In this document: one piece after another, positions 2,575 to 61,368 of the stretch | Position numbering within the stretch: position 1 is the first letter of the stretch | How the letters are laid out: the number at the start of each line of letters is the position of its first letter | Source: Candidatus Nanoarchaeia archaeon | GTDB lineage: Archaea > Nanobdellota > Nanobdellia > SCGC-AAA011-G17 > JACPNG01 | DNA: 64,000 bases | Direction: 5' to 3' | Assembly: GCA_028714095.1 (NCBI GenBank) | Contig: JAQTMY010000001.1 | Span: forward strand, 277,804-341,803 | The notes under the pieces: generated by a model | Database searches by the model: none | Seen by the model: the letters and a program-made list of their open reading frames with translations, nothing else | What the model was told of the DNA's origin: nothing | Made by a program: the position numbers and the translations under genes

Positions 2575-3663
2575 TTGATGAAAAGAGGTCAGATATCACA
2601 GGTCTTTATATACTTATTTGCTCTCCTTATTATTGTTTTTGTATTAATTTTTGGTTTTTCATTATTTTCCAAATCAAAACAATATGGTGAGTCTGTTGAT
2701 ATTCAGAATTTTGTTTCAACCCTGTCTTCCAAGATAGAATCATTAAATCAGCTTGAAGAGGGGTCTGAACAGACATTTTTATATTTATTGCCATCAACCA
2801 TAGATAAAATCTGCTTTGCAGACTCATCTGAATTGGACAAGACAGTTGATTCAGAATTAAATTTAATTTATTCCAAGGAAAAAAATCTTTATCTATTTCC
2901 AGGTCAGGCCTATAAGATAAATAGTTTATATCTTGATAAAAATCCATTGTGCATACAAAAAAATTCATTAAGCCTTAAGCTAACTAAAAATAAGGACGGA
3001 GTTTCTATCTCTTCAGAAGATTCTGTTGAAAAATGCAATACTCTTTTATTTAACAAAGAAGATAATATTGATATTTTATTTATTCCAGAATCTTATACAA
3101 ACATGGAGGCATTTTTGGAAGACTCAAAGGATTACATGGCAGTTTTATTGTCAAAAGAACCGTTAATCTCAAATAAGAAAGTATTTAATTTTTATTCATT
3201 GAATGAAATTCCAGAACTAAGTTGTACAAAAGATTATATTTTATTGTGTGATTTGCAAAAAATCCAAAAAGCAGCAATATCCTGCCCCCATGACATTATT
3301 GTTGTATTGTCAAAAAATGGAAAGTTATCTGGATTAAGATCCACCAGCCAGGGGAATATTATAATAATAAGTACAGGAGATAACAAATTAGTTATCAGCC
3401 ATGAGTTTGGTCATGCCTTTGCTAACCTTGCAGATGAATACCTAATAAAGGAGTTTAAGGGAAATCTCGAGAATGCTCCAAACTGTGATACCTCTCCATG
3501 CAAAAAATGGAATGGTAATGGGTGTTATGGGGGATGTTCCCTTGATAATTATTACAGGCCAAGCGCAGATTCAATCATGAAAAGCTTTGGCTTATTCTCA
3601 GATAATGAATTTAATCAGCCATCAAGAGAGGCATTTATAGAAAAGATGGGAGTTTACCAATGA
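2575..3663 (+). CDS. Pilin-like (class III) signal peptide protein with zincin metalloprotease domain (M64-like)
   Basis: N-terminus MMKRGQISQVFIYLFALLIIVF. Zinc motif HEFGHAFANLADEY at nt 3400-3441. Family assignment comes from motif memory only. Confidence 0.6.
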   Translation: MMKRGQISQVFIYLFALLIIVFVLIFGFSLFSKSKQYGESVDIQNFVSTLSSKIESLNQLEEGSEQTFLYLLPSTIDKICFADSSELDKTVDSELNLIYSKEKNLYLFPGQAYKINSLYLDKNPLCIQKNSLSLKLTKNKDGVSISSEDSVEKCNTLLFNKEDNIDILFIPESYTNMEAFLEDSKDYMAVLLSKEPLISNKKVFNFYSLNEIPELSCTKDYILLCDLQKIQKAAISCPHDIIVVLSKNGKLSGLRSTSQGNIIIISTGDNKLVISHEFGHAFANLADEYLIKEFKGNLENAPNCDTSPCKKWNGNGCYGGCSLDNYYRPSADSIMKSFGLFSDNEFNQPSREAFIEKMGVYQ

Positions 3664-4205
3664 AAAAAATATTTTATTTGTTAATAATAATCCTCTTAGC
3701 AGGTTTTGTCAGTTCATCAAGGGTTTATGTTCTTGACATGGAATATGATAAAGGGGAATTAAAGTTATTAAATCAGTTTTCTTTGTTTGGATTTGCCCCA
3801 GATTATAAGAATTCTGCAGGAGATTATTCCTTAACGTTCTATGATTCAAATGGAAATAAAATCAAGACAATAAGCTTGGATTTGCCTTTGATAAGGTATT
3901 CAGATGTTTCAACAGAAAAAGGAACAGAAGGCGATGTTGAATTCTTGGATAATGCTAAATTTTCTATAATATTGCCCTATCCTGAGAATGCTGCAGAAAT
4001 AAAAATAACTAAAGGCCCTCAGGAGTTGCTTAAAACAAAAGTTTCAGAATCCTCAGATAAAAAATCTCGATTTACCATCTGGATATTGGTTTTAATTATA
4101 ATCTTATTAATATTCCTATTGCTTACATTATTTATAAGAAAAAAGATTAAGTTTATATCTAACCAGCACCAACAATTACAACAATGGAACCAAAAAAGAC
4201 TTTGA
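3660..4205 (+). CDS. Secreted protein with C-terminal membrane anchor, unknown function
   Basis: ATGA overlap with the upstream gene. Sec-type signal MKKIFYLLIIILLAGFVSSS. C-terminal TM helix plus basic tail. Confidence 0.5.
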   Translation: MKKIFYLLIIILLAGFVSSSRVYVLDMEYDKGELKLLNQFSLFGFAPDYKNSAGDYSLTFYDSNGNKIKTISLDLPLIRYSDVSTEKGTEGDVEFLDNAKFSIILPYPENAAEIKITKGPQELLKTKVSESSDKKSRFTIWILVLIIILLIFLLLTLFIRKKIKFISNQHQQLQQWNQKRL

Positions 4206-13377: not shown

Positions 13378-16300
13378 TTATTTAACACCTAAACTCATTA
13401 AATCCTCATCACAGAAATCTGTTTTCCTTGGATAATCTGTTTTTTTATAACCTTCAATAACCCCGCAAGTAGTTTTTACAAATCCACCCATGAGAAGATT
13501 CTTGTTTAATTTAAACGTTTTCACAAAAAGATTTGAATTTATTTTAATAGTTGATTCTTCGGATAAGCAAGCTGCAAGTTGCGCAGAAGTTGATTGCCCA
13601 ATCCCGACAATATTTTTACAATTATCTGGAATTACTGTTGCCCATAACTCATCAGTCTCACATCCATCAGTCGTTTTTATTATCAGGTAGAATCTTGCTA
13701 GATCTTCATCATTGGAATCTGTTTCTAGATTATCTCTATCTAATTCTCCAATTTTTTGTTTACCCGCTTTATCTCTTGCCCAGTAAGTTTCTGTAATCTG
13801 GCAGGCTTTCTCCATAACTAGTGTTATATCTTTATCATCTTCTTCTGGGTAATTAAGAAGACTTACCCTTAACCTATAGTCCTCTCCGTATTTAATATTT
13901 GAAGGCAAAGGTATCTCGATTTTATGGCTATCCCATTTAATTTGTGTATTTATATTTTTAATAATTGTACCCATTTTTCTATCAATGAGACTAACACCAA
14001 CTCTCATTCCTTCTACGTCTCCATCTGGTTTGCATCCCCCTGATTCAATCTCTGCCCATAAATTATTCTCTAAAAGTTTGGTTACTCCGGTTGCAGTACT
14101 TAATTTCGGTTGAGCTCCTTTGATAATATACTGCTTATATTCTTTTTCATCGTCGAGAATATTAATTCCTTCTAGTTCACATTTAGTGCTGGCTTCCACA
14201 TTCTTAGAATATTCCCCATTTTTCTGCTGGACTCCATTTACTTCCCCATAGGTTTTTACGGTAACTTTAATATCATCTGCCTTGCTATTTTTATATTTTC
14301 CTTTCTCATCATTTATAACCATGGTATACTGTTTATTATTCCCTTGGTTTGCAACAAGGGTTTGTCCAAACACCTCTAGTTTTGTACTGCTAATCTGAAT
14401 ATCACTTATTTGCTCATCAAAACCATCTTTTTGGGAGCTTACTCTAAATACAATTCTGTTTATTCCTAATGAAAGTGCATCTTTTTCCAAAACTAGTTGA
14501 GCAACTTTTTCTCCTTTAATAATATTATCCAAAATATAAAGTCCAGGTTCTTTTGTTACAGCTGCGGGCGCTTGAGGAGTACCCTCTGCACCCCCCTTAA
14601 TTTCAGCATTTATTTCAGCAGCTTTTTCTGATTCCTCTTTTTTAGAATGATCTCCTTCTGTAAGATAATCTTCTTTAGCCAAACCAGCTTCTAGATAAAT
14701 TTCTCCAGCTCGTCCATAACCTTTAGATCTAAGATTTTGATCATTAACTCCAGCAAGTATTGTTTTAAGTTCTTCTATGGTTGTTGCAGCCTTAATTTCT
14801 TCTGTTTTCTTTTCTCTCTCTTCTTTACTTAAGATTATTCCTTTATTTATCAGATCTTCTTCATATTTATTTTGTGCCTCACTTAAGTATACAGAAACAT
14901 TCCCATAATTTTCTAAATCCTGCAAGCTAAAGCTTCTTGTATCCAGCCAGCAATATCCTAATGCAACTCCTGATGAATCTTTTCCGCAGCTCCCGACATT
15001 CCTCCAATAATCCTTGTTTGAATTTCCGTCAGGATCTTCTACAGAGCAAACCCTTACAATGCTATCCGTAGTGCTGCTGATCCCAATCGTTGATGCAATT
15101 GTTTCTCCAGTGCTTTCTTTTAGTTCAGGTATGCATTCTTCCTCACTGTTAATATTTTTAGTAACTTCTTCTGTAACAGCATTATCCTGCAACTGATTTA
15201 ATCCATAATCTGTTGTGACTCTCCCAAATCCGCATTCAGTCACTTCATTAAGCTCGATACATACCTCATTAAATCCTTCTCCTGCTACAATGTCAACGTT
15301 TTTAGTTATATATCCTCCATATTCTATCTGGTCTTTATTCTCGCTTGTACTTCCCTGATCCCCATATGTAACGAATAATTTTCTTCCTGTTTTGCTGTCT
15401 CTCAAATAAACTCTATACCCGATCTTATCTGATCCGGAAATATCCTGGGTAGTTCCTGCATAGATATGGAAGAACACATTGTAACTTAGAGTTCCAAATT
15501 TCTCACTGTAAGGTTTTGAACTCATTGTAGCAATAAACTGGGAAGGATCTCTTGGGTTTACAAGTTTAGTCATGAACTCTCCAAGGTTTGGAATTGATCC
15601 GCTTACAAATCCTTTGCAGAATTCCATTTTTATTTGCTCAAGTTTCTTTGCCTTGAATGAATTATCAACCAAATTTCCATACTCACTTGTAAAGAACTCA
15701 ACACTCTTTAATGCATTTTCATAGCTACTTGAGAACTGAAGATATTCCCCCCCGCCTTCGATGCTGCTTCCGCTGAAGACATTTCCATTGAATAAGTTCT
15801 GGACAAATTTAGCAGCGCCTCCAGCCTCTTTCCAGAAAACATCACAAACATAAATGCTCTGGATTTTGTCGCATATGCCAACACTCTTCCCCTCTTCCTT
15901 TTGTGTTGTTAAACAGTCTTTTCCTGACTGGAATATTGATCTTATATTCTTGAATCCAGCTAAAACTCCTGTTGCACAAACAGGCAATATATCTCCAGAT
16001 CCCTGTGGCAGTACTATTGATCCAATTATCCCAGATCTTACAACATCCTTGACATACCAGGTTCCTCCAGCATTAAATCTTGAAACAGGACATACTATAG
16101 GATCGCATATATTGAATAATGCCTTGCAGTCTGAAACACTCATAGAGTCTGTGCAATGTCCCAAGGCTTTGTTTGTATCCCTGTTTGCAGCATTATAACT
16201 GCACTCAAATACTTTTTTGTCAATTTTTACAGTCCCTTGATCATCACATTTAAATGAATCAACAAAACTTTTGTATTTATATAATTGAGCTGGTTCTACT

Positions 16301-19300
16301 TCCTTAAGATAGCTTGCTGACTCTTTCATTGATATATCATCCTTGGTGCATAATAACCCATCAGAACCAACATTCATTAGACTAATACTGGATGCACTCC
16401 CATCGGCTGCATATTTTAAAACCTTTAAGTAATTTCCGTCTTTGTAAGGGATGCAGTAGGGTTTTCCATCAGAGTAAAATTCTGCTTTTGCATTTGCAGC
16501 ATAGTCGCTCCTCTTCCCGCTTTCCTGCACAATATCAACTACCAAATAACATTCGCTATCTTTTTTAAATAACTGACCGCTCCCGATTATTTTCTTTGCG
16601 TCCTTAGAAATATCATCTTCGTTTATAGGAATTAATCCTTTTATTTCCTCAAATTTGACTGGATTTCCTTTTTCATCTTTTTTAAGAACATACCCTACAG
16701 CAGTCTTTTTATCCTTGCTCATTGTAACAGTGGATAAAATATTATTTATTTCAGCACATCCACCATTATTTTCTGTTAATCCTTTCCACTCTTTTTGTCT
16801 TTGTTCAATGCTCTTTGATTTTTGAAGTTCAAGATTTTGTATTGCAATCTTGTAAAGTTTTTCTTTTTCTGCTTTGTCCTCTATGTTGCTGTCCTTGAAT
16901 AATTTTTCAGTTTCTTTGTAAGCAGAATTTTTCTCTTCAAGGCTTTTGATTAAAGCTGTTTTCTCCTCTGCTATTGTTTTAAAGTATCCTTCCTCTTTCT
17001 TATCAAGCCCATCGGGTTTATTGTTGAGTATTGAACTTAAGATTAAATACTGCTTGACATCTTTTGAATCAACAATAAACTCTTTGCCATCTTTATTAAA
17101 ATCTTTTATTTCTTTTTCCAGTTCCTGATAGGCCAGACTCTCATATAATTTTCCGTCCTTAAGCTGGTCGTTAAAGTCATCAACTTTGGTATCAACCTCG
17201 TCAATTATTGATTCTGCAAATTCTCCAGTCTCCATTAAACATTCATCATAACTCTGATAAAATTCCCCAATTTTCCCTGCAGATTCTAAACTTACTTTTG
17301 TAATGCTGTTTGCCTGGCAGAAATCTTTCAGTCCCTGTATCTCTTCATACCCATTCATGACTATGCTTCTTGCATTTGCCTTGTTTCCTATCAAGAAATT
17401 CTTTGCTGTGATGAATGCAAATGTTGCTCCGCATCCAATCGTCCAGCCCTTTACAATATCCTCTGTTGTGTTTATTATTCCATCTAATGTTTTTATTGTG
17501 GAGTCAAGATTTCCTATATGATTGTCTAATTCTTCAGTTGTAAAATTAATTAATTTTATCCCTTTATCAATTGGAATTCTTACATTAAACTCGCTTGTAC
17601 TGTAAACCTTTGCTCTCCCAGGTATTATTGTTATCTGGGCAGCCTTTAATGATTCTACTTTTTTTAATTCAACCTCTATCTTCTTGCCGGTCTTTGAAGT
17701 TATTTCTTGTTTCTTTTCTATCTCTAATTTTATATTTTCCCCATCCGCTTCATCAGGGTATTTATGTTCCTTTAATTTTTCAGAATTTTTATTGTAATTG
17801 GAATCTTCATTAAGTTTGCTTGCAAGCAAATTTCTTACTGCAAGAACTCCTTCTACATAACTTGTGTCTGCAGTATCTCCACATCCTAATCCATTATAAG
17901 CTCTTAATGCCCTTTCCCATCCAGTATAACCTGCATATTGTTTTTGATATTCAGCATTTGCACAATAACTTTTTACCTTGCTCTCATAATTACTCCCTTC
18001 ATTATACTCGTCGTATTTTTTCTTTAAGAATTCAATCCCAATTCTTATGTTTTCATTAGGATCAAATCTTACATCAAGGTCTTTTGTCCCCTCTTCATCT
18101 TTAATCTCATCCAGCTCAGCTAATTGAGCAAGGACTTTTTCTTTAGTACCTTCATCTTTAATATTAAATGCACAGGTGCTTTCTTGATTCCCTAGGTCTT
18201 TATAGAGCTTAGCATTACTATCAACTTCTTTTACAGTTCCAGGCATAAGTTGCATTAATCCTATTGCCCCACAATATTCTTTGTTTAATTTTGAGATTAA
18301 GCTAGGATAAAATCCGCTCTCATAAATTATTAAAGCTTTAACCAATAAAGGATCTATATCTTTTTCTTTAGCATATTCTAAAATTTTTTCATCATACTTG
18401 TTTTGATAAGTTTCAGCTTGAACCCCAATCCTTTTGAGATCTCCACTCTTAGCATTGGTCTTGATATCCTCAATTTTCAATAGACCCGGTCCTTTTATTT
18501 CCTCACCCTTGGAGACAGTTACATCATCCTCATTAATGTCTATTATTTTATATCCAGTATTCTTTAATGCTTCATTAATCTTATAATCAGATGTATCATC
18601 TCCAACTCTAACGCTTGCAGATGCTCCCTGATGTTTTTTGATTTCCTTAACTTCAATGATTGCTTCTTCTGAACCAAGCTTTATATTTTCAGATGAAGAA
18701 CTTATTCCCGCAGAAGCCAAGGTCAGGTAGGTGCTGTATTTATCAAGATTGGTAGTATCCTTTATGTTTCCCAGCTCGTCTAAAATCCTGCTTCTGAATG
18801 AGTTGAAATCGCTGTCAGCGTTAGCTAGTTTAGCTTTAGTCATTAAGTCCGCATAAGCCTCAAGGATCTTGCCTGTATAAATATCATATTCTGAACTTGA
18901 TCCAGAGACTAACTCCCTTGCTTTTTTGAAATTAGTTACTGCTGCACAATCAAGCTTAAATGCAAAATCACTATTAATATCCACTTTCTCGTCTTCTATA
19001 TTCTTGCAGGGATCTTCAGTATTATAATTTGTTGTACTCTTGCTTATTTCCAAATTTATTGTTCCACTGTCCTTAAAGTTGGTTAATTTAACCTCACCAG
19101 AACCATCATCTTCTTTCTCAATTTTTTCAACATACCAGTCTGTCCCGGGTATGTAGTTTGATTCAAACACCTCTACAATATCTATTTCCTTATTTTTGTA
19201 AATCTGGAACGTTGCACTTTTGCTTAAGGAATTAACAATGCCATCTAATCTTACTTTTATTATATCAACTCCACTGCTCCCCAATAATCCGCTTATCCCG

Positions 19301-20226
19301 CTTAAAGAAATCTGATTTGAGGTTTGCCCGACTTTTATTTTTTGCAGGCCTCCAACCGGAGTTAATGTATAATCATAGACCTGTATTGTTGCACTATCAC
19401 TGTCAAGGCTGTCTAGTCTTACATAATATTCTCCATCTAAGAATGATTCCTGGCTTATTGAGTTATAGCCTTCTGCAAAAGAGATAGTTCCTGTGTCTGT
19501 TTGTCCACTCACCCCCTCTTTTAATTTTGTTAGAATATTTTGTACAGCCTCAAAAAGAGTTCTGGATTCTCTTGTTGTTCCTCCAGTAAATTCATTTGCA
19601 GCTTTTTGATAAATCACCTTTGTTAATCTTCCATAGTTCAAGCTCCTGTCTGTGCTGAACTCAATCCTTGCACTTAAGTTTAAGTCAATTTCTTCAGGAA
19701 TCTGGTCTTCGTTGTCAAATCTTTTGATCTCAACTAAAATAATCCCTAGATTATCAAGATCTTTTTGGTCCATTGTGCCTAAAATTGTTTTAACAGGTGC
19801 TAATGGATCCTTGTAATAACTTTTTGGAGGATAATAGGAAATACCCTGGACATAAGGATTGGAGGTGATTGGGGTAACTACAATATTATTTATTGAAGGT
19901 ATTCCTATAGTAGGTTCTCCAGTTGAACTTTGTTCCCCTAAGAAACTTCCCAAGGTATTTCCTCCCAAATAGATGAAAACAGGAACTTCCCCTTTAGTTA
20001 ACAGATTACTTTGTAAAACTGTTGGATCTACTTGTTTTGGATATACACTAATTGCCTCTCCAAGATCCTCATAGAAATTAATCCCGCTTAAGATTGTATC
20101 ACTGCTCGCATATCTTGATAATGCGCTTGTTGTTCTAGTTGTTGTCGGTGTTCTTGCAGCCTCAACAATAGGGATATTGCTTACTAGGAAAATTACAATC
20201 ATTGCTATTGCAATTATTTTCTTCAT
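13378..20226 (-). CDS. Giant secreted protein (2,282 aa) with lytic transglycosylase (SLT/GH23) region
   Basis: Uninterrupted 6.8-kb ORF. Sec signal MKKIIAIAMIVIFLVSNIPIVEA. SLT motifs IIYESGF (Glu636, codon 18319-18321), GLMQLMPGT and RAYNGLG. Cys-dense block at about residues 1290-1400. Confidence 0.8.
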   Translation of the reverse strand: MKKIIAIAMIVIFLVSNIPIVEAARTPTTTRTTSALSRYASSDTILSGINFYEDLGEAISVYPKQVDPTVLQSNLLTKGEVPVFIYLGGNTLGSFLGEQSSTGEPTIGIPSINNIVVTPITSNPYVQGISYYPPKSYYKDPLAPVKTILGTMDQKDLDNLGIILVEIKRFDNEDQIPEEIDLNLSARIEFSTDRSLNYGRLTKVIYQKAANEFTGGTTRESRTLFEAVQNILTKLKEGVSGQTDTGTISFAEGYNSISQESFLDGEYYVRLDSLDSDSATIQVYDYTLTPVGGLQKIKVGQTSNQISLSGISGLLGSSGVDIIKVRLDGIVNSLSKSATFQIYKNKEIDIVEVFESNYIPGTDWYVEKIEKEDDGSGEVKLTNFKDSGTINLEISKSTTNYNTEDPCKNIEDEKVDINSDFAFKLDCAAVTNFKKARELVSGSSSEYDIYTGKILEAYADLMTKAKLANADSDFNSFRSRILDELGNIKDTTNLDKYSTYLTLASAGISSSSENIKLGSEEAIIEVKEIKKHQGASASVRVGDDTSDYKINEALKNTGYKIIDINEDDVTVSKGEEIKGPGLLKIEDIKTNAKSGDLKRIGVQAETYQNKYDEKILEYAKEKDIDPLLVKALIIYESGFYPSLISKLNKEYCGAIGLMQLMPGTVKEVDSNAKLYKDLGNQESTCAFNIKDEGTKEKVLAQLAELDEIKDEEGTKDLDVRFDPNENIRIGIEFLKKKYDEYNEGSNYESKVKSYCANAEYQKQYAGYTGWERALRAYNGLGCGDTADTSYVEGVLAVRNLLASKLNEDSNYNKNSEKLKEHKYPDEADGENIKLEIEKKQEITSKTGKKIEVELKKVESLKAAQITIIPGRAKVYSTSEFNVRIPIDKGIKLINFTTEELDNHIGNLDSTIKTLDGIINTTEDIVKGWTIGCGATFAFITAKNFLIGNKANARSIVMNGYEEIQGLKDFCQANSITKVSLESAGKIGEFYQSYDECLMETGEFAESIIDEVDTKVDDFNDQLKDGKLYESLAYQELEKEIKDFNKDGKEFIVDSKDVKQYLILSSILNNKPDGLDKKEEGYFKTIAEEKTALIKSLEEKNSAYKETEKLFKDSNIEDKAEKEKLYKIAIQNLELQKSKSIEQRQKEWKGLTENNGGCAEINNILSTVTMSKDKKTAVGYVLKKDEKGNPVKFEEIKGLIPINEDDISKDAKKIIGSGQLFKKDSECYLVVDIVQESGKRSDYAANAKAEFYSDGKPYCIPYKDGNYLKVLKYAADGSASSISLMNVGSDGLLCTKDDISMKESASYLKEVEPAQLYKYKSFVDSFKCDDQGTVKIDKKVFECSYNAANRDTNKALGHCTDSMSVSDCKALFNICDPIVCPVSRFNAGGTWYVKDVVRSGIIGSIVLPQGSGDILPVCATGVLAGFKNIRSIFQSGKDCLTTQKEEGKSVGICDKIQSIYVCDVFWKEAGGAAKFVQNLFNGNVFSGSSIEGGGEYLQFSSSYENALKSVEFFTSEYGNLVDNSFKAKKLEQIKMEFCKGFVSGSIPNLGEFMTKLVNPRDPSQFIATMSSKPYSEKFGTLSYNVFFHIYAGTTQDISGSDKIGYRVYLRDSKTGRKLFVTYGDQGSTSENKDQIEYGGYITKNVDIVAGEGFNEVCIELNEVTECGFGRVTTDYGLNQLQDNAVTEEVTKNINSEEECIPELKESTGETIASTIGISSTTDSIVRVCSVEDPDGNSNKDYWRNVGSCGKDSSGVALGYCWLDTRSFSLQDLENYGNVSVYLSEAQNKYEEDLINKGIILSKEEREKKTEEIKAATTIEELKTILAGVNDQNLRSKGYGRAGEIYLEAGLAKEDYLTEGDHSKKEESEKAAEINAEIKGGAEGTPQAPAAVTKEPGLYILDNIIKGEKVAQLVLEKDALSLGINRIVFRVSSQKDGFDEQISDIQISSTKLEVFGQTLVANQGNNKQYTMVINDEKGKYKNSKADDIKVTVKTYGEVNGVQQKNGEYSKNVEASTKCELEGINILDDEKEYKQYIIKGAQPKLSTATGVTKLLENNLWAEIESGGCKPDGDVEGMRVGVSLIDRKMGTIIKNINTQIKWDSHKIEIPLPSNIKYGEDYRLRVSLLNYPEEDDKDITLVMEKACQITETYWARDKAGKQKIGELDRDNLETDSNDEDLARFYLIIKTTDGCETDELWATVIPDNCKNIVGIGQSTSAQLAACLSEESTIKINSNLFVKTFKLNKNLLMGGFVKTTCGVIEGYKKTDYPRKTDFCDEDLMSLGVK

Positions 20227-22136
20227 ACTAACTCCGGATATTCAAAAAACATACTATTTGTATATTCGTTAAATTCATCTGTGAATTTGGATGCATCTTC
20301 GTAAAACAAATCTGAATCATCATATATTGCATACAAAAGGATTTTATTAGATCCATTTAATTGATCTCTTGATAAACTAAACTCAAATTCCCCTCCGCCT
20401 ATTAGATTTTGTTTAATCTTCTGCTCAGGGATGATATTTTCTACGCATTGACTTTTTGTTTGTCCTATCAAACCTAAAATTCCATCAGGTACATCAACGC
20501 ATTTTACAATTGTCCTTTCTGGTATTGTTATTGTTTTTCCTTCTTCATCAATAATATAAGATCTAACCTTGTAAGTTCCTGGAATAATTTTTAATATCCC
20601 TTCCTTGTTGCTTACTATCGTATTATAATTATCACTTTTAAATTCAAAGAACACATTTTCATTTTCAACCTTTCTTATCGCTCCTGTATTCTTATTAATT
20701 AATCTAACTTCATAACCTAAATTATAATAAGGCTCCAGATAAATAACAGCCTCATCCTCTTTTGTTGTTGATAAAATCTTGTTTCCTACCCCAAATTCGT
20801 TTTCTGCAGTAAGATACCCATTTACACATCCAGGGAAATATCCGTCAAATACCCCAGAACTTTCACCGATATAGCAGTTGCTAAACCCGCAATTATAAGA
20901 AAGCTTGGCAGGAGCTTCTTCATTCGTTTTAATATCAATAGTTCTTATTCTCACTAATTGAGTTTTGGAATTGCATATTTTATTATTGAACATTGAGATA
21001 TTATTATTGCTTAATGTATCCTTTCTTGGCTGGTTTTTCTCTATAACAACCATTGTTGCAAACTGGAATATATCCTTATCAGAATTTAGTGTAAATAGAA
21101 CAGGATATCTTATGTTATAGGCAAACTGATATTCATTTATGCAGAACCCCCCAGGCAATATATTATTACTTGTTCCTGAAAAACCCTGAGCAACAAGTAT
21201 CTCTCCTTCATTTGGTGTAACCTCTGTCTCAAATGGCCAGGATTGAAGATATCTTAAGTTGATGTTTATATCATAACTTTTCTTTAAAGCTCTCCATTCA
21301 AAGTATTTTTCAGTATTTGCATACCTAGTCCCTATAATCTTTATGTTTGGGATGTTTGTTTCTACAATTGCTTTTAGTTTATTATTTACCTCTTCAGTCA
21401 TCCATACTTTTGCTCCGCAGCTAAATTCAGTTCCAGAGTAAGGGATATCATCATAAACAGTTAACATGTCAATTGTTTTTTCCTCCAGAAAATAGTCAGT
21501 ATTTTCCTGCTCTAGTATCTGGACAGCTATTTTATATAATTCTCCAAAATCAGATTCAAGAACAGAACTAAAATCCTCTATCTTGAATTCTTTATCAGCC
21601 CTTTTTATTGTGGTTGGCATATTTAATCCAGTTCCAATCTCATTATTTTCTATGCTTATTTTAACCTCTTTTTCCCCGGTTTTGATGTTGTATCCTGAAA
21701 ATCCACTGAAATTATTTAAACATAAATCTAAATTTGATTTAACATAAATTCCCAGGTTTTTTTCTATCTCTCCAAGGCTTGGATACTGTAACTTATCTAC
21801 ATTGTTTGCTTTCCTGTAGTACCAGTAAGGAACTTCCAGATCTCCGAATGATAGTTTATTTGAGACTTTGTTGAAATCTGATATAGGAATGTTATCATCT
21901 TCTACATCAAGATACCCTCCCTGTAACCCCATCAGTTGGCTTCCTGAGAAAGTTACCTGCTGTAAGCAGCTCTCAACAAAATTTTTTACACTCTCTATCT
22001 CTTCACCTTCTTTCTCCCCAGTCAGAATCTCATTGCTTTTGTTTAACATTACTTCCCGGAAGGCAATGAATGCTCCAAGTACTACAACAATTATTATTCC
22101 TATTATTACAAATAAACTGACCTGACCTCTTTTCAT
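20223..22136 (-). CDS. Large extracellular protein with pilin-like (class III) signal peptide
   Basis: N-terminus MKRGQVSLFVIIGIIIVVVLGAF. ATGA overlaps on both sides. Its N-terminal ~170 aa are paralogous to ORF 55332-56018. Confidence 0.6.
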   Translation of the reverse strand: MKRGQVSLFVIIGIIIVVVLGAFIAFREVMLNKSNEILTGEKEGEEIESVKNFVESCLQQVTFSGSQLMGLQGGYLDVEDDNIPISDFNKVSNKLSFGDLEVPYWYYRKANNVDKLQYPSLGEIEKNLGIYVKSNLDLCLNNFSGFSGYNIKTGEKEVKISIENNEIGTGLNMPTTIKRADKEFKIEDFSSVLESDFGELYKIAVQILEQENTDYFLEEKTIDMLTVYDDIPYSGTEFSCGAKVWMTEEVNNKLKAIVETNIPNIKIIGTRYANTEKYFEWRALKKSYDININLRYLQSWPFETEVTPNEGEILVAQGFSGTSNNILPGGFCINEYQFAYNIRYPVLFTLNSDKDIFQFATMVVIEKNQPRKDTLSNNNISMFNNKICNSKTQLVRIRTIDIKTNEEAPAKLSYNCGFSNCYIGESSGVFDGYFPGCVNGYLTAENEFGVGNKILSTTKEDEAVIYLEPYYNLGYEVRLINKNTGAIRKVENENVFFEFKSDNYNTIVSNKEGILKIIPGTYKVRSYIIDEEGKTITIPERTIVKCVDVPDGILGLIGQTKSQCVENIIPEQKIKQNLIGGGEFEFSLSRDQLNGSNKILLYAIYDDSDLFYEDASKFTDEFNEYTNSMFFEYPELV

Positions 22137-22324
22137 TTTAGAGCTATAACTAATTTCGAGCCTCCGAGTTTTTTTATTTTAATTAATTTTTTCTTCTGCA
22201 TGTCTTCTATTATATCTGTAACTGTGGCATTTTTTATATTAAAAAAAGCAGCAATCATGCTGAAGTTCACTAGATTATCTCTTTTTTTTACAAAGTCCAA
22301 TATCTCTGCTTCTGTTGGTATCAT
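22133..22324 (-). CDS. Small winged-helix-like DNA-binding protein
   Basis: 63 aa; pattern ILDFVKKRDNLVNFSMIAAFFNIKNATVTDIIEDMQKKKLIKIKKLGG. First gene of the unit, with an ATGA overlap to the next. Confidence 0.5.
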   Translation of the reverse strand: MIPTEAEILDFVKKRDNLVNFSMIAAFFNIKNATVTDIIEDMQKKKLIKIKKLGGSKLVIALK

Positions 22325-22399
22325 TTAAAGTACTTTAAAAGCTTTATTTTAGTTGAAAAGCTTAAAAAAGCCTTTCTTTTAGGTTTAAAATATTTTAAA
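22324..22399. promoter_or_regulatory. Two perfect 16-nt palindromes of the form TTTAAA-N4-TTTAAA
   Basis: TTTAAAGTACTTTAAA at 22324-22339 touches the start codon. TTTAAAATATTTTAAA lies at 22384-22399. AAAGCTTT palindromes sit between them. Confidence 0.3.
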
Positions 22400-22457
22400 A
22401 CCTTTAATAATCTGAAAATAAATAGACAAAACTAATATATAAACATTTTGAAAGGGA

Positions 22458-23206: not shown

Positions 23207-24976
23207 TTAAATCTTTGCATGCAGGATTTCTAATCCTCTTCTGGTTATTCTTAATTCTTTCTTCCACCCTTTGTCATGCTTGATTGTTTCAGTTTTTATT
23301 AATCCTAAATCTTCAAGTTTTTTCTTTATGGCATTCCCTCTTCTCACACTAATATTAAATAATTCATAAACCTTTGAAATATTAAATCCCTCACTTTTTG
23401 ATACAAATTCCAGGAATTTTTTATCCTCACTTTCAAGATCAAATTCCTGTTTTTTAATCTTAACTTGCTCTTCTAGAAATTCTCTTGGAGCAGCAATTCC
23501 TGAAGCTTTAAATGCTTCATCTATATTTTCTACCTCTTCATCAATTTCCTTGTCAACTCTTTCCTTAACATAACCTTTTTTCTCCTCGTCCTTAAGAACT
23601 CTAGTCCCCATCCTTTCTTTTAGTTCATCATCTGTCACAACCTCATCCTTTAAGTGGACTAATGGGGTTTTTATCATAAATGGGCTTGTATGTCTTTCAG
23701 ATAATTTTACCAAGGCCTCTCCGACCATTAACATTGAGAAATAATCTTTGTGTTCTCTTAACTGCATAATTCCCGATATCTGTTCAAGGTCATCAGGCAG
23801 TACCTGCTGAAAAGCAATATTGCATGCACTATTTCCAGCTACAACCTCGCTTAATTTAGAGATATGCTGGTCTAAACAGATTAATCCAATACCATATTCT
23901 CTTACCTCTCTGTATAATACATCTGTGGCACTTTCTTTAATGAAATTTGGTTTATCCTTAAGGAATATGTTGTGGGCTTCATCAATTAAAATTGCCTGTG
24001 TAAATTCTCCTCTTGATGAATTCTCATTTGTTTTCTTATATTTGTATAAATAACTTAGGACAAACTCACAGAAGAACTTTTTCTGAGAACTGTTTAATGA
24101 ATGAAGTTCAAACAAAAGCTTGTCTCCAAAATAATCTTCAACCTTAACACTGTCTCTTCCTTTATATCCGATGACTTCCCCGAAGTCTCCAAAAGTTAAT
24201 GCGTGTGCAATTCTTAAAGCAGAAACTACCCATTCACTTTCCCTGTTTCTTATTTTCATTTCTTCTTCCTTAATTTCTAGTCTATCTTTTATCTGATGCC
24301 AAGTTGGATAATTATCAGAACCCTCATAAACTCCAAACTCCCTGAAAGCTTCATCTAACGTCTCTACCAGTATTTTATGTACTCCATAACTTGCAAAGAA
24401 ACTTTCAGTAATCATATCAACCAATAAGCTAATCCATTCTTTGTCAGGCACCCCTTTTGGTGGCCTGTTGATGTTTATCCTAAAGTTATTGTTTATTTTT
24501 GAATTACCTATTGTATAAACTTTAATCGTATTGTCTATTAAAATTAAGGACCTGAAACTTTTTTTCCAGTCAAAAATCCAGAATGGTTTTTTGTTTCTGA
24601 TTAAATTTCCAAGAAGTATGAATGCAAAATTAGTTTTACCAGATCCACTCATCCCACTCACACATATATGCCTTGGCCAGTCCCTATCTCTCAATCCAAA
24701 TGGATAATAATCTTTCTCAGCATAAGATATCATTCCTAGTGTATATGGTCCTCCAATAATGTCTTTTTGAGGGGGTTCAAGAAGAATTTTTTGGCTGAGC
24801 ATACTCTGGTTAAGATATTTGTGATATAATGCACTAATTGCCTGTTCTACCTCAAATTGTTCCTCTCCTCTTTCAGAGAGTCTGTATCTTAGATATAGTG
24901 CATCGATCTTTTTGCCAAAAACCGGCCTAAGCTTTCTGCACATTTCCTCAATAGTTAAGTCTCTTTCAAAAGCCAT
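23207..24976 (-). CDS. HerA/FtsK-like (DUF87-type) P-loop ATPase with C-terminal winged helix
   Basis: Walker A VSGMSGSGKTNFAF, FDWKKSF, Walker B AILIDEAHNIF. C-terminal ~70 aa are wHTH-like (ISKVYELFNISVRRGNAIKKKLEDLGLIK). Confidence 0.6.
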   Translation of the reverse strand: MAFERDLTIEEMCRKLRPVFGKKIDALYLRYRLSERGEEQFEVEQAISALYHKYLNQSMLSQKILLEPPQKDIIGGPYTLGMISYAEKDYYPFGLRDRDWPRHICVSGMSGSGKTNFAFILLGNLIRNKKPFWIFDWKKSFRSLILIDNTIKVYTIGNSKINNNFRININRPPKGVPDKEWISLLVDMITESFFASYGVHKILVETLDEAFREFGVYEGSDNYPTWHQIKDRLEIKEEEMKIRNRESEWVVSALRIAHALTFGDFGEVIGYKGRDSVKVEDYFGDKLLFELHSLNSSQKKFFCEFVLSYLYKYKKTNENSSRGEFTQAILIDEAHNIFLKDKPNFIKESATDVLYREVREYGIGLICLDQHISKLSEVVAGNSACNIAFQQVLPDDLEQISGIMQLREHKDYFSMLMVGEALVKLSERHTSPFMIKTPLVHLKDEVVTDDELKERMGTRVLKDEEKKGYVKERVDKEIDEEVENIDEAFKASGIAAPREFLEEQVKIKKQEFDLESEDKKFLEFVSKSEGFNISKVYELFNISVRRGNAIKKKLEDLGLIKTETIKHDKGWKKELRITRRGLEILHAKI

Positions 24977-24978
24977 TT

Positions 24979-25452
24979 TTACTCTAAGATTTTGTCAAGC
25001 ATGCTGGATTCGCTTTCTTTTTCTCTCAATTCCCTGTTCCACTCTCTTAGCTCTTTCTTCAGCATTGCAATATCTCTCCAGCATTCTAATTTTTCTTTTG
25101 CCTTAAGTTCCTCTAACTCTGCTTTTTTCTTAAGTAAATTTAATTTTTCTGCTGTTGCAGTAGGATCTGTACTAGAAACACTAATACTCATGGTATTAAT
25201 CTGACTTACAATCTTATCAATATCGTTGGCAATTTCCTTGGTTAATCTTTTTCTCTCTTCAACAAGTTCAAAAATTTCTTTTTGGCCTTCCTTTAATGAA
25301 ACAACATCTCTTTTCTGAATATTCTTTAATATATCTTCTCCTTCTGATTCCTCAAAATGAGCAGAGTAATCTCTAATCTTATTTTTTTCTTTTTTATTCT
25401 CATCTATCTCGAGATCAGATAAAAATCCTTCAAGTATGTCTCTCCTAACCAT
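24979..25452 (-). CDS. Coiled-coil protein, unknown function
   Basis: 157-aa highly charged heptad-like ORF. Its stop lies 2 nt before the ATPase start. Confidence 0.45.
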   Translation of the reverse strand: MVRRDILEGFLSDLEIDENKKEKNKIRDYSAHFEESEGEDILKNIQKRDVVSLKEGQKEIFELVEERKRLTKEIANDIDKIVSQINTMSISVSSTDPTATAEKLNLLKKKAELEELKAKEKLECWRDIAMLKKELREWNRELREKESESSMLDKILE

Positions 25453-29137: not shown

Positions 29138-29194
29138 CCCCTTATATTAAGTATAAGAATTATATAAAAATATCTATCAAACCATAAATTAGGA

Positions 29195-29295
29195 TAGCCC
29201 CGCCAGGATTCGAACCTGGGTCTCCGGAGCCAAGGTCCGGAATGATTGGCCACTACATTCCGCAGAAATATTAAATGTATTTCTTCTACGGGGCT
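29195..29295 (-). tRNA. tRNA-Gln(UUG)-like with ~28-nt non-canonical intron in the D-arm region
   Basis: Hand fold: acceptor AGCCCCG/CGGGGCT, anticodon stem CCGGA/TCCGG, loop CCTTGGC, T-arm CCAGG-TTCGAAT-CCTGG. An extra segment after position ~9/10 contains the hairpin AGAAATA/TATTTCT. Confidence 0.6.
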
Positions 29296-30743: not shown

Positions 30744-31232
30744 ATGCAAAAAAGAGGTCAGATCTCAGAGGTTTTTATCTGGATTGCAGCAGCAATCATC
30801 ATGGGTTTAATTTTATACTTTGGAGTTAAAACTGCATTTAGGCTTCAAAATACAGGCAACCAAGTAGCCCTAAATAAAGAAATAGAGGACTTTAAGAGTG
30901 AGGTTGAAAAATATTATTACTTAGATAAGGGCTCTTCCAAAAAAATAACACTTAATTTCCCTTCAGAAATAACTAATATTTGTTTCTCTAATGGTAATGC
31001 TGCAACCAAAAACAAGGATATAGAGCAGGGGATAGATTTTATAGTTAAGGAAGAGGCTAAAAAACCAGATGGAAATAATATGTTTTTAATACCTTTAGAT
31101 TCTTATTCAAATACAGGGTTTTATATTCCTTATCTTAAACACGAAGGAGCCAATTTATTATGTTTTGAAAACAATAAAAATTTGTTTATTATTTCTAAAG
31201 GCGATCACGTAGATATTAAGGAGACTATATAA
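30744..31232 (+). CDS. Pilin-like (class III signal peptide) protein
   Basis: MQKRGQISEVFIWIAAAIIMGLILYF. Shares PSEITNICFS / PSTIDKICFA and the N-terminal region with ORF 2575-3663. Confidence 0.6.
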   Translation: MQKRGQISEVFIWIAAAIIMGLILYFGVKTAFRLQNTGNQVALNKEIEDFKSEVEKYYYLDKGSSKKITLNFPSEITNICFSNGNAATKNKDIEQGIDFIVKEEAKKPDGNNMFLIPLDSYSNTGFYIPYLKHEGANLLCFENNKNLFIISKGDHVDIKETI

Positions 31233-36067: not shown

Positions 36068-36104
36068 TTTAGATACTCCTTTCAATAGAGAGAAATGGTT
36101 TTCT

Positions 36105-45681: not shown

Positions 45682-46608
45682 TTATGTGAAATCTGTATTC
45701 TCCACAGTAAATGATGTTGCTATCGTGTCTTTATAGAAGTATGTTAACTCAATGTTCAATGGCTTCTTAAATGCAGTTTCCTGCAAGCTTGCTGTATCAA
45801 TGTCACAGCTTATTGTTCTTGCTCCACCAATTAATTCTACAAGACCATCATTACTATCTCCCAATCTGGCACATTTAATTGAAAGGTCTCCAACCCCGGA
45901 GAGTTTGACTCTTATTTTATCCTCCAATTCATCATTTAATCCACACTCAGAACTGAATGTTCCAGGAGCATAAACAACACCATCACCCTGAACCATTATG
46001 TCAAATGTTAGTTTTATTGATGTGCTTCTTGGAATCTGGCTCATACTTACTATACTGACAGGAGCTCCTGAGTTTTCTATACTCATGGCTTCATTGCTTA
46101 ATTCACACTGATCTTCATCGCCTTGACTGTTTGGTTTCTTCTTTAAGCATAAGTCACCAACAGCTTTTGTTTGGTATTCATAGCATACATCTGCTCTCAA
46201 GTCCTGAGGAAAATCTGAATCAAGATCATATTTATATTTTGCATTCTTGAACCTGACTTCAATCTGATCTGGCTCAGTAACCTTTTCTCTTATCTTGCTT
46301 CTTTTCTCAATCTTGGTTGTTGTTCTTTGAGATAATGAGCTTAGAGAAAATGCATCTTTTTCAATACCCTGCAACGTAACTATCATTTTTCCAGCCTCAA
46401 TGTCAGCTTCGCCCTGGTTCTTGGCAATTATTCCAATATCAAATTCATCTTCATTATTGTCTCCTACAACTAAAGGGGGTTCTCCTTCAACAAAGCCTAG
46501 TTCTAATCCTGTTGTCCCTCCTATAAATCTCCCACTCGTAGTTGTATCTGTTTGTGAACAACCAACTAAGAACAACCCCAATACTAATATCAAAAGATAC
46601 CTTTTCAT
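45682..46608 (-). CDS. Lipobox-type secreted protein, unknown function
   Basis: MKRYLLILVLGLFLVGCSQTD. Its start lies 1 nt after the stop of the upstream gene. Confidence 0.5.
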   Translation of the reverse strand: MKRYLLILVLGLFLVGCSQTDTTTSGRFIGGTTGLELGFVEGEPPLVVGDNNEDEFDIGIIAKNQGEADIEAGKMIVTLQGIEKDAFSLSSLSQRTTTKIEKRSKIREKVTEPDQIEVRFKNAKYKYDLDSDFPQDLRADVCYEYQTKAVGDLCLKKKPNSQGDEDQCELSNEAMSIENSGAPVSIVSMSQIPRSTSIKLTFDIMVQGDGVVYAPGTFSSECGLNDELEDKIRVKLSGVGDLSIKCARLGDSNDGLVELIGGARTISCDIDTASLQETAFKKPLNIELTYFYKDTIATSFTVENTDFT

Positions 46609-47896: not shown

Positions 47897-47942
47897 AAAC
47901 AAATACATAAGTTTATTAATATATAAAGTTTGTTGTTAATAA

Positions 47943-51747: not shown

Positions 51748-51943
51748 ATCTATTATTAAGAAATTATTTGATAAACCAACAAAAAACAAAATTAAGAAAG
51801 CTGCAAAAATCACAGTTAGAGAGGCAAAGATCGTTGCCCCTAAAGCAAAAAAAGAAGTTGAAAAGATTTATCATTTTGGAAAGGATCATGCAAAAAAAAT
51901 AATCATAGAGATCAACAAAGAACCAGGGAAAAAGAAGAGATGA
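51731..51943 (+). CDS. Small Lys-rich protein (hypothetical)
   Basis: ORF overlapping the ends of both neighbours; composition-only evidence. Confidence 0.3.
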   Translation: MKKQIKSIIKKLFDKPTKNKIKKAAKITVREAKIVAPKAKKEVEKIYHFGKDHAKKIIIEINKEPGKKKR

Positions 51944-52794
51944 TGATTTTTTGGATACTAACCTTAATAGGATTAATCGGATTAGTTCTAGCTTCTTATT
52001 TTGATATTAAAACAAAGGAAGTCCCAAATATCATCAGTTTTTCAATGATTGCTCTTGGGTTAGGATTAAGATTGATTTATTCAATAATAACAAAGAATGA
52101 AATGTTTTTTAGGAACTCTTTGTTGATAGTTTCGGTATTTTTTATACTTGGCGGGATTTTGTATGTGTATAAAAAATGGGGGGGAGCAGACACAAAAATT
52201 CTTATGGCCCTGGGGGCTTTATTTTACCCATGGTCAACTCCTTACTTTTTAGTCTCATTTTTAATAATCTTTTTATTGGTTGCTTCTGTTTATGGTTTTA
52301 TCTGGGCAGCATATGTTTCAATAAAGCATAAGGAAGAATTCAAGAAAACTTTTGTTATAATATATAAAAAGAAAAAAACCCAGACAATAATATTATTTTT
52401 TGTTTTTCTGCTGCTTTTTGTTATTTCTCTGATCGTATCTGATATTTCCTTAAGGTTTGTTTTGATGTTGCTTGCAATCCTGTCATTGCTTTATCACTAT
52501 TTGTGGATATTTACCAAGGCTGTTGAAAAGTCCTGCATGGAAAAAACAGTTCCTGTTTCAAAACTTGTAGAAGGAGATTGGATTATTGGAGAAATTAAAA
52601 AAGGAAATAAAGTATTATATCCTAAAGATTTGCCACTTATCACAAAAAACCATATTAGTTTATTCAAGAAGTATGGAATTAAGGAAGTAAGAATAAGGGA
52701 GGGATTTGCTTTTATCCCGGTTTTCCTTATCACATTGGTAATAACTCTTTTCTTTGATAAGGTGTTCTTAACTTATGTAACTACCTTATTGTAG
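51940..52794 (+). CDS. A24-family prepilin/preflagellin peptidase (PibD/FlaK/EppA-like)
   Basis: Two catalytic Asp motifs in TM context: ASYFDIKTKEVPN and KKWGGADTKILMALG. C-terminal extension of about 90 aa. Confidence 0.75.
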   Translation: MMIFWILTLIGLIGLVLASYFDIKTKEVPNIISFSMIALGLGLRLIYSIITKNEMFFRNSLLIVSVFFILGGILYVYKKWGGADTKILMALGALFYPWSTPYFLVSFLIIFLLVASVYGFIWAAYVSIKHKEEFKKTFVIIYKKKKTQTIILFFVFLLLFVISLIVSDISLRFVLMLLAILSLLYHYLWIFTKAVEKSCMEKTVPVSKLVEGDWIIGEIKKGNKVLYPKDLPLITKNHISLFKKYGIKEVRIREGFAFIPVFLITLVITLFFDKVFLTYVTTLL

Positions 52795-60843: not shown

Positions 60844-61368
60844 TTAATCAAAAAAATCCCAAAAAACACTAAAACCCATCAACCTAAACTTTAAAAGATT
60901 AATTTTTTTAGAACCCAGATTAAAAAAACTATCAACATGCTCAACAGTCAGATATTCAATATTATCATGGTCTATAATCTTATGGGCTATAAATCTTAAA
61001 TCTGTTCCTAAGATGTCTACATCAACTATCTTCCTTTCATATAAATTAAAATAAACCGCATTTCTGTCTCCTCCATCACTTATTTCAACAGTAGCATATT
61101 CTTCTCCTTTTTCATTATAATCAACTCTCTTGACAGAAACATACAAGGTCTTGTTATTTATTGTAATTGGAATTTCTGATCCAACAATGTTATAATAGTA
61201 AGTTACTCTGTTTGGTTCTGAAAAATCATGAATAGGCATATCTTTTGTTCTTATTTGTAGTTCTGGATATCTTACAAAATTAGGAAGATCCCAGTGATTT
61301 CTTAGTGGAGCAATAACTGTGGGGGTTATTAAGATAAATAACAAGATTAAAACCAAACCCCTTTTCAT
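60844..61368 (-). CDS. Secreted hypothetical protein
   Basis: N-terminus MKRGLVLILLFILITPTVIAP could be a Sec or a class III-like signal. Confidence 0.45.
   Translation of the reverse strand: MKRGLVLILLFILITPTVIAPLRNHWDLPNFVRYPELQIRTKDMPIHDFSEPNRVTYYYNIVGSEIPITINNKTLYVSVKRVDYNEKGEEYATVEISDGGDRNAVYFNLYERKIVDVDILGTDLRFIAHKIIDHDNIEYLTVEHVDSFFNLGSKKINLLKFRLMGFSVFWDFFD

Follow-up and report, generated by a model that had tools for sequence, protein, structure and literature searches.

Why would an archaeon that does not itself make murein secrete a 2,282-residue protein with a domain for cutting it, and what holds such a protein at the cell surface? The locus that raises this question lies in a stretch of 64,000 nucleotides (nt), here called the window, from a Candidatus Nanoarchaeia archaeon (assembly GCA_028714095.1, contig JAQTMY010000001.1, positions 277,804 to 341,803 of the forward strand). 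ORF calling and translation give three consecutive, co-directional open reading frames (ORFs) on its minus strand, of 63, 637 and 2,282 amino acids (aa), the second and third of which are referred to below as the partner and the giant. With moderate confidence, we consider that partner and giant together make up a surface complex of two components, inherited vertically, on which interchangeable murein-active modules are displayed towards bacterial walls; the system is well defined and widespread, while its function is read here from sequence alone. An earlier examination of the same DNA (the original prediction) had described the three ORFs as a translationally coupled unit, and in this it was correct: the translations contain every string it quoted, and both junctions within the unit are ATGA stop/start overlaps. 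The unit comprises:

22133..22324, minus strand: 63-aa winged-helix-like protein, the first gene, whose stop overlaps the partner start (ATGA)
20223..22136, minus strand: 637-aa partner (ORF and translation, homologues without a Pfam domain, structure model)
13378-20226, minus strand: 2,282-aa giant, whole ORF (ORF and translation)

Compared by BLAST with homologues of 1,775-2,708 aa, the giant resolves into three conserved blocks, residues 1-415, ~830-1070 and ~1250-1870, and its murein-directed SLT domain (residues 611-799) falls within a variable insert between the first and the second. From the N-terminus, its parts are:

20158..20226, minus strand: residues 1-23, Sec-type signal peptide (MKKIIAIAMIVIFLVSNIPIVEA, followed by A), assigned by inspection and hydrophobicity, with the cleavage site also placed by inspection
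18982..20157, minus strand: residues 24-415, N-terminal scaffold module (BLAST map; local hidden Markov model, HMM, in 134/157 members)
17830..18396, minus strand: residues 611-799, SLT/GH23 family-1 lytic transglycosylase module (Pfam, catalytic-motif alignment, motif conservation)
17020..17739, minus strand: residues 830-1069, mid module (local HMM in 146/157 members)
14617..16479, minus strand: residues 1250-1870, Cys-rich core, which defines the family (alignment, HMMER, genome scan)
13381..14616, minus strand: residues 1871-2282, lineage-specific C-terminal tail (homology to the tail of the closest relative only)

Strong hydrophobicity is confined, within the giant, to the N-terminal signal, which has an equivalent in all homologues examined. 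Residues ~905-925, previously described as a hydrophobic helix, lie below the transmembrane hydrophobicity threshold and correspond to a conserved amphipathic helix, C-x2-T-x6-K-N-[FL], which the mid module contains together with an IIPGR...IPIDK beta region. The Cys-dense block is real and belongs to the most conserved part of the family, the core, with 16 invariant Cys in an alignment of 10 sequences. An exhaustive HMMER search with the core retrieved 968 cluster representatives (50% identity level) at E-values of at most 1e-3, including 834 at E<=1e-30; most of the 150 best matches are 1,500-3,800 aa long, the shorter ones resembling fragments, and 553 encoding stretches came to light when one genome per species was scanned with a core pattern. 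According to the local HMMs, the order of N-module, insert, mid-module, spacer, core and tail is kept in 134 of 157 members, the rest being mostly fragmentary-looking. Since orthologues at 59% and 36% identity share the length class and the architecture of the giant, an assembly artefact is unlikely to account for its ORF. The tail, with its Cys pairs, probably consists of beta-sandwich or binding modules, its sole Pfam signal being a weak A2M match. An AlphaFold2 (AF2) model of the core, built from 10 sequences, has a predicted local distance difference test score (pLDDT) of 51, too poor to interpret, and the corresponding PDB fold search returned generic beta-sandwich matches at E-values of at least 0.008. 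Strong depletion in N-x-S/T sequons is a further feature of the giant, 4 against 18.9 +/- 3.9 expected (1,000 shuffles, minimum 7), and possibly a sign that N-glycosylation is avoided; in the other ORFs of the window the depletion is only mild (65 against 79.5).

The SLT module itself is readily recognised. Pfam SLT (PF01464) matches the giant with 54.4 bits (cut-off 21.3, E=1.1e-14). The match falls into two stretches that start at residues 615-673, which means that an insertion of ~70-100 aa between motif II and motif III divides the domain. The motifs follow in the order IIYES (Glu636-Ser637), GLMQLMPGT and RAYNGLG, and in a PDB sequence search LLVKALIIYESGF...GAIGLMQLMPGT aligns with the catalytic Glu-Ser and the GLMQ of Neisseria LtgA and Escherichia coli Slt70, EmtA and, weakly, EtgA being among the further matches. 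NCBIfam and PHROGs agree on the module through weak matches, to a flagellar-assembly lytic transglycosylase and a lytic tail protein, respectively. Among the 41 family members with a detectable SLT domain, over which conservation was scored with the aligned number differing per motif, the catalytic Glu is invariant (34/34), as is the Gln of GLMQ (38/38), and the Ser (32/34) and Y-N-G (~27/28) are nearly so. The conservation shows a family-1 lytic transglycosylase (LT) active site that appears intact and under purifying selection, and the SLT/GH23 motif set that had been proposed is thus upheld, both by a match above threshold and by an invariant Glu636. A search for a close bacterial donor of the module gave weak matches to small bacterial SLT proteins and nothing closer; the lobe is also weakly similar to the SLT domain of Bacillus SPbeta YomI/CwlP and to the PHROG 'lytic tail protein'.

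What does not hold is the status of this motif set as the defining feature of the protein, given that an SLT-like module is present in only 41 of 157 members (26%) and at two positions, the insert or, more often, the tail. When homologues were examined with Pfam, an insert-position SLT was found in the closest relative (P0002) only, and an SLT near the C-terminus in three others (P0004, P0007 and P0010); three (P0003, P0005 and P0009) have no Pfam domain at all, and one (P0006) has a pretoxin PT-HINT domain, the only such case among the members examined. The tail position houses enzymatic modules in other members of the family: a Pfam census of 22 SLT-negative tails yielded Amidase_3 (twice), Amidase_2, Peptidase_M15_4, 3D and PG_binding_1, as well as DUF2272, Metallophos and TPM_phosphatase. 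N-acetylmuramic acid (MurNAc)-L-Ala amidases, D-Ala-D-Ala peptidases and PG_binding_1 recognise MurNAc-peptide and D-Ala features that only bacterial murein has; they would be pointless on pseudomurein, which lacks both MurNAc and D-amino acids. Because its variable modules are overwhelmingly aimed at the peptidoglycan of bacteria, the giant family looks like a carrier of interchangeable enzymes and binders for bacterial walls, and the module set across the family is stronger evidence for a foreign wall as target than a single SLT domain. Single-linkage clustering of the variable regions lumped nearly everything together.

Two further features recur in the variable regions. A module with the pattern HYRESSLNF...YNG(P/L)GYR occupies residues ~640-760 of P0003, at the insert position of the SLT, and the tail position elsewhere (P0112); Pfam does not recognise this module, which perhaps represents a diverged lysozyme-like or transglycosylase domain. 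A Cys-rich repeat, C-x2-C-G...C-x3-C-H...C-Y-F...C-S-D-F, precedes the enzyme domain in many tails.

The partner belongs to a family of its own, with 77 full-length homologues of 600-740 aa, none of which has a Pfam domain or a name. Its N-terminus, MKRG/QVSLFVIIGIIIVVVLGAF (MKRG/QVS..., the slash marking the cleavage position), carries a class III (prepilin-type) motif followed by a hydrophobic helix. Both features are found in 75 of the 77 homologues, as [KR]-[GAS]/Q-[VI]-[TS] plus helix, with Gln at +1 in 72; the motif definition applied follows FlaFind. A candidate processing enzyme, which would act in trans from an unlinked gene, is encoded elsewhere in the window:

51940..52794, plus strand: Peptidase_A24, class III signal (prepilin) peptidase (PF01478, E=5.8e-10, 40 bits against a cut-off of 26.5)

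The AF2 model of the partner (45 sequences, pLDDT 82) shows a membrane helix, a low-confidence break at residues 33-42, an alpha/beta domain at about residues 46-370 (~320 aa) that has conserved Cys and appears novel, and tandem beta-sandwiches at ~390-610. Fold searches of PDB and viral libraries gave generic tandem-Ig likeness to Gram-positive pilus and adhesin proteins and to phage fibres, with template modelling (TM) scores of at most 0.16, and no pilin was matched at a meaningful TM score; a search of PDB sequences with the partner profile found nothing significant. The original prediction had called the protein pilin-like, which is true of its class III N-terminus; its predicted fold, a 600-aa multidomain ectodomain after a helix break and with no single small head, is not that of a pilin, and on this modelled architecture we set aside its identification as one.

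Other genes of the window carry the same kind of N-terminus. A second, smaller pair of like design consists of a 228-aa class-III-signal protein (55332-56018, minus strand) and, downstream of it and overlapping by 4 nt, a 600-aa protein with a Sec signal (53533-55335, minus strand), for which Pfam and NCBIfam give no match. The 228-aa protein is a paralogue of the N-terminal alpha/beta domain of the partner (partner HMM, E=7e-29; BLASTP, 25% identity over 230 aa), so that this pair suggests that the partner N-domain is a reusable anchor or adaptor for secreted proteins. Another pairing of a prepilin-type anchor with a coupled secreted protein is formed by a 362-aa class-III-signal protein (2575-3663, plus strand; MMKRGQISQVF...) with a Peptidase_M64 (IgA-peptidase-like) domain (E=8e-14) and a 181-aa signal-peptide protein (3660-4205, plus strand) that overlaps it by 4 nt. 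Prepilin-type N-termini are also present at 30744-31232 (plus strand, MQKRGQISEVF...) and 60844-61368 (minus strand, MKRGLVLILL...), and, by eye only, at 46610-47908 (minus strand, ...RERRGALEGG...), which is followed by a lipoprotein-like 308-aa ORF (45682-46608, minus strand). With the motif in 5 of 61 ORFs of at least 70 aa in a non-overlapping ORF map, the sixth candidate being recognised by eye only, the class III signal seems to be a major route of export or anchoring in this genome.

How constant is the association of partner and giant? At seven loci of giant homologues, a gene for a 613-711 aa protein lies directly upstream in six, and the seventh contig begins at the giant. On a larger scale, 80 species-level loci were gathered with the core alignment, 60 of them evaluable (giant start plus at least 2.2 kb upstream). 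A partner-family ORF immediately precedes the giant in 59 of the 60, with a gap of exactly -4 nt in 35, and tblastn detects a partner in the sole exception (L042), bringing the count to 60/60. The coupling to a pilin-like partner, proposed earlier from the window, is therefore near-universal in the family.

The surroundings are equally stable. In the window, the unit is flanked by genes for archaeal TFB, S8e, S3Ae, S13/S15e, LSm and a GINS-associated DHH protein; tRNA-Thr (TGT) and tRNA-Val (GAC) lie directly upstream on the same strand, and a convergent tRNA-Leu ends 5 nt from the stop codon of the giant. At the seven loci, S8e and LSm are always adjacent, TFB was called six times and S3Ae four times; ~70% of long loci have S8e, LSm and TFB no more than 10 kb away; and the position between S3Ae and S8e/LSm/TFB is kept across orders. 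The G+C content of the window is uniform at ~32%, and the composition of the unit is that of the rest of the window. All homologues of giant and partner come from Candidatus Nanoarchaeia, Woesearchaeota and Pacearchaeota assemblies, which, together with the archaeal neighbours, identifies the organism as a DPANN archaeon of the Woesearchaeota/Pacearchaeota type. The conserved housekeeping position and the near-universal pairing argue for vertical inheritance, and the pair thus appears, from its genomic distribution, to be an ancient locus at the core of the lineage, as opposed to a mobile island.

Some neighbours are more variable. Two genes upstream of the tRNA pair were considered as members of the system and rejected, being linked to it in only 2 of the 80 loci, those of the two closest relatives:

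23207-24976, minus strand: 589-aa HerA/DUF87-like P-loop ATPase (weak Zot/ResIII matches)
24979-25452, minus strand: 157-aa coiled-coil-like protein

Among relatives, a 111-aa LysM protein is encoded directly downstream of the giant in L006, LAGLIDADG homing-endonuclease-like genes occur in L006 and L009, and a phage-type integrase lies downstream of the giant in L007. These variable neighbour regions are:

L006, 14960-16083
L009, 532-1152
L007, 15388-16512

One partner-giant pair (L085, DATKUW010000047.1) comes from a metagenome-assembled genome labelled 'Bacillota bacterium', where it is accompanied by archaeal TFB, S8e, LSm and S3Ae, and is almost certainly on a mis-binned DPANN contig.

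The first gene of the unit is less constant. Assigned a winged-helix-like fold in the original prediction, its 63-aa product matches many winged helix-turn-helix families, all below the Pfam thresholds: the best is MarR_2 (22.3 bits against a cut-off of 27), with some ten others (MarR, Fe_dep_repress and so on) scoring lower. A further match is to CdvB (E=1.8e-4), specifically to its C-terminal winged helix, which binds proteins; the fold of the 63-aa product is probably a winged helix. The gene had been taken for a fixed, dedicated member of the unit, whereas it is clade-specific: L001 and L003 conserve it together with its ATGA coupling, and of 59 loci only 9 have it, seven as a gene of its own and two fused to the partner. 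In seven protein clusters from independent assemblies, a winged-helix domain is fused in frame before an intact M-KKRG-Q class III motif; such a position places the domain in the cytoplasm, and it is a matter of speculation that signal-peptidase cleavage releases it.

Upstream of the gene is a conserved leader:

22325..22454, minus strand: intergenic leader from tRNA-Val to the first gene, candidate promoter/operator (88% column identity, three genomes)

Over its 130 nt, mean column identity is 88% across the window, L001 (5755-5895) and L003 (5764-5904), whose giants are 36-59% identical. The leader has a TATA-like element (TTTATATA), with a second A/T box lying ~19-27 nt ahead of the ATG; it also has AAAG(G)CTTTT repeats and a near-palindrome (AAAGGTTTTAAAATATTTTAAACCT) that is compatible with a putative operator. 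In Pacearchaeota, an unrelated ORF of 42-45 aa (MKKYLLL[VI]EDE[RK]LWEKFK...) overlaps the partner start (L005, 6024-6161; L007, 6024-6152) where the window's clade has its winged-helix gene; its likeness to ribbon-helix-helix regulators is a visual impression only, and Pfam gives no match. A two-transmembrane ORF of 64-67 aa lies upstream in L005 and L006.

A plausible mechanism can be assembled from these elements. The partner would be inserted in the membrane through its class-III-signal N-terminal helix, probably after trimming by the A24 peptidase, and its beta-sandwich domains would form a stalk from which the novel alpha/beta domain projects. The giant, presumably exported by Sec, has no anchor of its own and is translationally coupled to a membrane protein, which makes the partner the most likely means of holding it at the surface, in a ratio of perhaps 1:1. 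On this model the giant would be a disulfide-rich scaffold of three modules into which evolution has plugged interchangeable peptidoglycan-active modules, here an SLT, and the complex would bind and locally cleave bacterial murein, either attaching to or breaching a bacterial host or prey or harvesting wall material. The 63-aa protein may be a clade-specific add-on, serving as an autoregulator on the upstream palindrome or as a cytoplasmic adaptor. An extracellular device acting on the wall of another organism had already been proposed for this locus. An extracytoplasmic archaeal protein, an intact-looking LT and the murein-directed modules of the family all speak for that proposal; the mechanism and the target are what we infer.

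Several considerations weigh against a role in wall attack. Some three-quarters of the sampled members have no SLT, and no murein-related domain can be recognised in about two-thirds of the SLT-negative tails that were sampled, for which reason the scaffold core may have some other function. Profiles of the N, mid and core modules found no relatives among PDB sequences. We know of no bacterial host for any Woesearchaeote or Pacearchaeote. Finally, universal inheritance at a single, housekeeping-adjacent locus would suit a structural envelope protein equally well.

That last point leads to the alternative that fares best, although we judge it rather unlikely: the pair would be the main, S-layer-like envelope system, an anchored stalk with a large canopy in the manner of SlaB and SlaA, and the hydrolases secondary decorations for defence or feeding. 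A universal, syntenic and vertically inherited pair in a housekeeping neighbourhood, in which a membrane-anchored protein with a beta-sandwich stalk accompanies a large, anchorless secreted subunit and most members show no identifiable enzyme module, speaks for such a system. Neither the partner nor the N, mid and core modules show likeness to S-layer proteins in sequence or fold, however, the core model being of low confidence, and highly polymorphic enzymatic inserts and tails would be unusual in the subunits of a lattice. The giants, at 2,000-3,700 aa, far exceed known archaeal S-layer subunits. Archaeal S-layer proteins are typically heavily N-glycosylated, and the giant is depleted in sequons (4 against 18.9 expected).

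The same two proteins could also be read as the host-contact organelle of Woesearchaeota and Pacearchaeota, a proposal we find improbable. Its interchangeable modules (SLT, amidases, M15, 3D and PG-binding) would specify the bacterial wall chemistries, and with them the hosts, that a given lineage is able to attach to and open, and prepilin-peptidase cleavage would couple export to regulation through the winged-helix factor. Cleavage would here release the cytoplasmic winged-helix factor, whether fused or encoded by the coupled gene, or would match it stoichiometrically; to our knowledge, such coupling of export to regulation would be an undescribed use of the class III signal peptidase.

Also improbable is a giant that is released as a diffusible carrier of bacteriolytic or scavenging enzymes, a polymorphic 'bacteriolysin' acting at a distance, with the partner as its export or maturation factor. 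Its appeal lies in the missing membrane anchor, in the polymorphic C-terminal modules, which include the PT-HINT of P0006 as in polymorphic toxin systems, and in precedent: bacteria-killing peptidoglycan hydrolases secreted by archaea have been documented (PMC12352652), and Pacearchaeota have been proposed to use wall-derived amino acids (PMC11537232). Yet translational coupling in strict 1:1 style to an anchored partner whose ectodomain is large points to a stable complex; more than 1,500 aa of conserved scaffold would be a costly diffusible carrier for a genome of ~0.5-0.8 megabases (Mb); and PT-HINT occurs in one examined member only.

Very unlikely, in our view, is a partner that acts as a genuine minor or tip pilin in a type IV filament, with the giant at the tip as adhesin or harpoon. 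The class III motif is conserved and an A24 peptidase present, and DPANN archaea do encode type-IV-filament systems, into which large class-III-signal proteins have been proposed to be incorporated (bioRxiv 10.64898/2026.04.22.720090). Set against this, no filament ATPase or platform genes were found near the locus, in the 64-kb window or among the called genes of the seven related loci; in the partner model, the helix is broken beyond the transmembrane segment and a body of several domains, 600 aa in all, stands in place of a pilin head; and a 60-aa cytoplasmic domain precedes the signal in seven protein clusters.

A remnant of a virus or mobile element, for instance a lytic-domain tape-measure or ejection protein, is essentially excluded. 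For it speak the weak likeness of the SLT lobe to the tape-measure-type SLT of SPbeta YomI/CwlP and to the PHROG 'lytic tail protein', the tRNA genes that flank the unit and the integrase that follows the giant in L007. Against it, a search of 50,697 phage records with the scaffold core gave no match, the locus keeps its place between S3Ae and S8e/LSm/TFB from order to order, essentially all sampled members of the lineage have the pair, and its base composition is that of the rest of the window.

A surface complex presenting murein-active modules thus remains the reading we prefer, and it would matter because Woesearchaeota and Pacearchaeota are among the most widespread uncultivated archaea, and because it bears on whether they live on bacteria. 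The giant 'murein hydrolase' would be one face of a universal two-protein surface complex with polymorphic, murein-specific enzymes, so that a single-domain annotation becomes a testable system whose module repertoire could be used to predict the wall types of hosts. Partner and scaffold are targets for antibodies, cryo-electron tomography and pull-downs, the SLT module is easily assayed, and the list of DPANN-specific surface proteins gains a giant family whose fold is unknown (~1,000 clusters at 50% identity) together with a partner family.

Three observations concern other parts of the window. A tRNA-Gln at 29192-29270 (minus strand) scores 33 bits with Rfam, just above the gathering score and with a partial model match, and is 79 nt long according to ARAGORN; it may be an atypical or intron-containing tRNA. 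The only G+C-rich stretch (44% against ~32%) holds a gene at 34061-36085 (minus strand) for a 674-aa signal-peptide protein with three PKD domains and Big_9, which may be a recent horizontal acquisition. A scan for sigma-70 promoters and terminators, a method unsuited to archaea, gave counts at chance level.

How, then, does the system compare with known ones? Phage tape-measure and ejection proteins, such as SPbeta YomI/CwlP and T7 gp16, are likewise very long, carry an SLT-type domain and breach a wall on contact, and sometimes bear further peptidoglycan-cleaving domains. The giant differs from them in its unrelated scaffold, its chromosomal location and vertical inheritance, and its apparent export by Sec with a membrane partner in place of packaging in a virion. 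Polymorphic toxin systems of the Zhang/Aravind type share with it an N-terminal secretion signal, a conserved body and variable C-terminal effectors; unlike theirs, its modules are mainly peptidoglycan hydrolases and binders, and in the window giant the enzyme sits in an internal insert. By the usual marks of such toxins, Pfam finds no PT-HINT in the window giant, and no conserved small downstream or immunity gene was seen. VirB1, EtgA and flagellar LTs also dedicate a family-1 SLT to local wall opening for a surface machine, but they are small and open the producer's own wall, whereas the giant comes from a producer that lacks murein, and its enzyme is part of a scaffold 2,282 aa long. The SPEARE proteins of Nanohaloarchaeota, which belong to the predation-associated giants on the surface of ultrasmall or predatory cells, are likewise comparable to the giant. 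So are the 'Archaeovorins' of Omnitrophota, huge multidomain surface proteins with wall-degrading domains that include SLT (bioRxiv 10.1101/2023.11.21.568195); sizes, domain sets and lineages differ in both cases, and no homology has been shown. Outside the enzyme modules, the giant system does not appear homologous to any of the tape-measure, toxin or predator proteins compared.

Closer parallels exist for the arrangement of the pair. Bindosome-type class-III-signal proteins resemble the partner in having a prepilin-type signal, a helix and a large non-pilin ectodomain, encoded away from filament genes (bioRxiv 10.64898/2026.04.22.720090); the partner departs from them in an ectodomain with no solute-binding fold and in its coupling to a secreted giant instead of an ABC transporter. 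SlaA and SlaB of Sulfolobales are adjacent, co-expressed genes whose products form an anchored beta-sandwich stalk holding a much larger anchorless protein. There the anchor is C-terminal, whereas the partner has an N-terminal, class III one, and the large subunit here carries enzymes and polymorphic modules.

The nearest published relatives are the proteins of fam00969 (Castelle 2021, PMC8204110), large extracellular SLT proteins that reach 3,000 aa and belong to a module of 51 families confined to Woesearchaeota and Pacearchaeota. They were suggested to serve possibly for attachment to bacterial walls and had earlier been seen in three genomes (Rinke 2013 and Castelle 2015). Giant SLT proteins were taken as evidence for predation by Vigneron 2022 (PMC9723730), and the idea of attack on or attachment to walls is also cited elsewhere (PMC11537232; PMC12352652). 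The original prediction was therefore right that giant murein-hydrolase proteins of DPANN archaea had been remarked on (PMC8204110; PMC9723730), and, as they are already described for these very lineages, its central item is not new. Judged by size, SLT domain, signal and lineage, the window giant is almost certainly a member of fam00969, with which it shares lineages, size class, extracellular location, SLT/GH23 domain and proposed action on bacterial walls. The AR20 protein of Castelle 2015 is reportedly counted among the DPANN giant SLT proteins as well. As published, fam00969 is defined by its SLT annotation, whereas the family described here is defined by a scaffold independent of SLT, swaps its modules and has an obligate partner. 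The literature searched holds no description of an SLT-independent scaffold, module polymorphism, a class-III-signal partner, or a winged-helix gene or fusion, and what appears to be new here is thus a family defined by its scaffold, in which modules are swapped, a partner is obligate and one clade has added a winged-helix gene.

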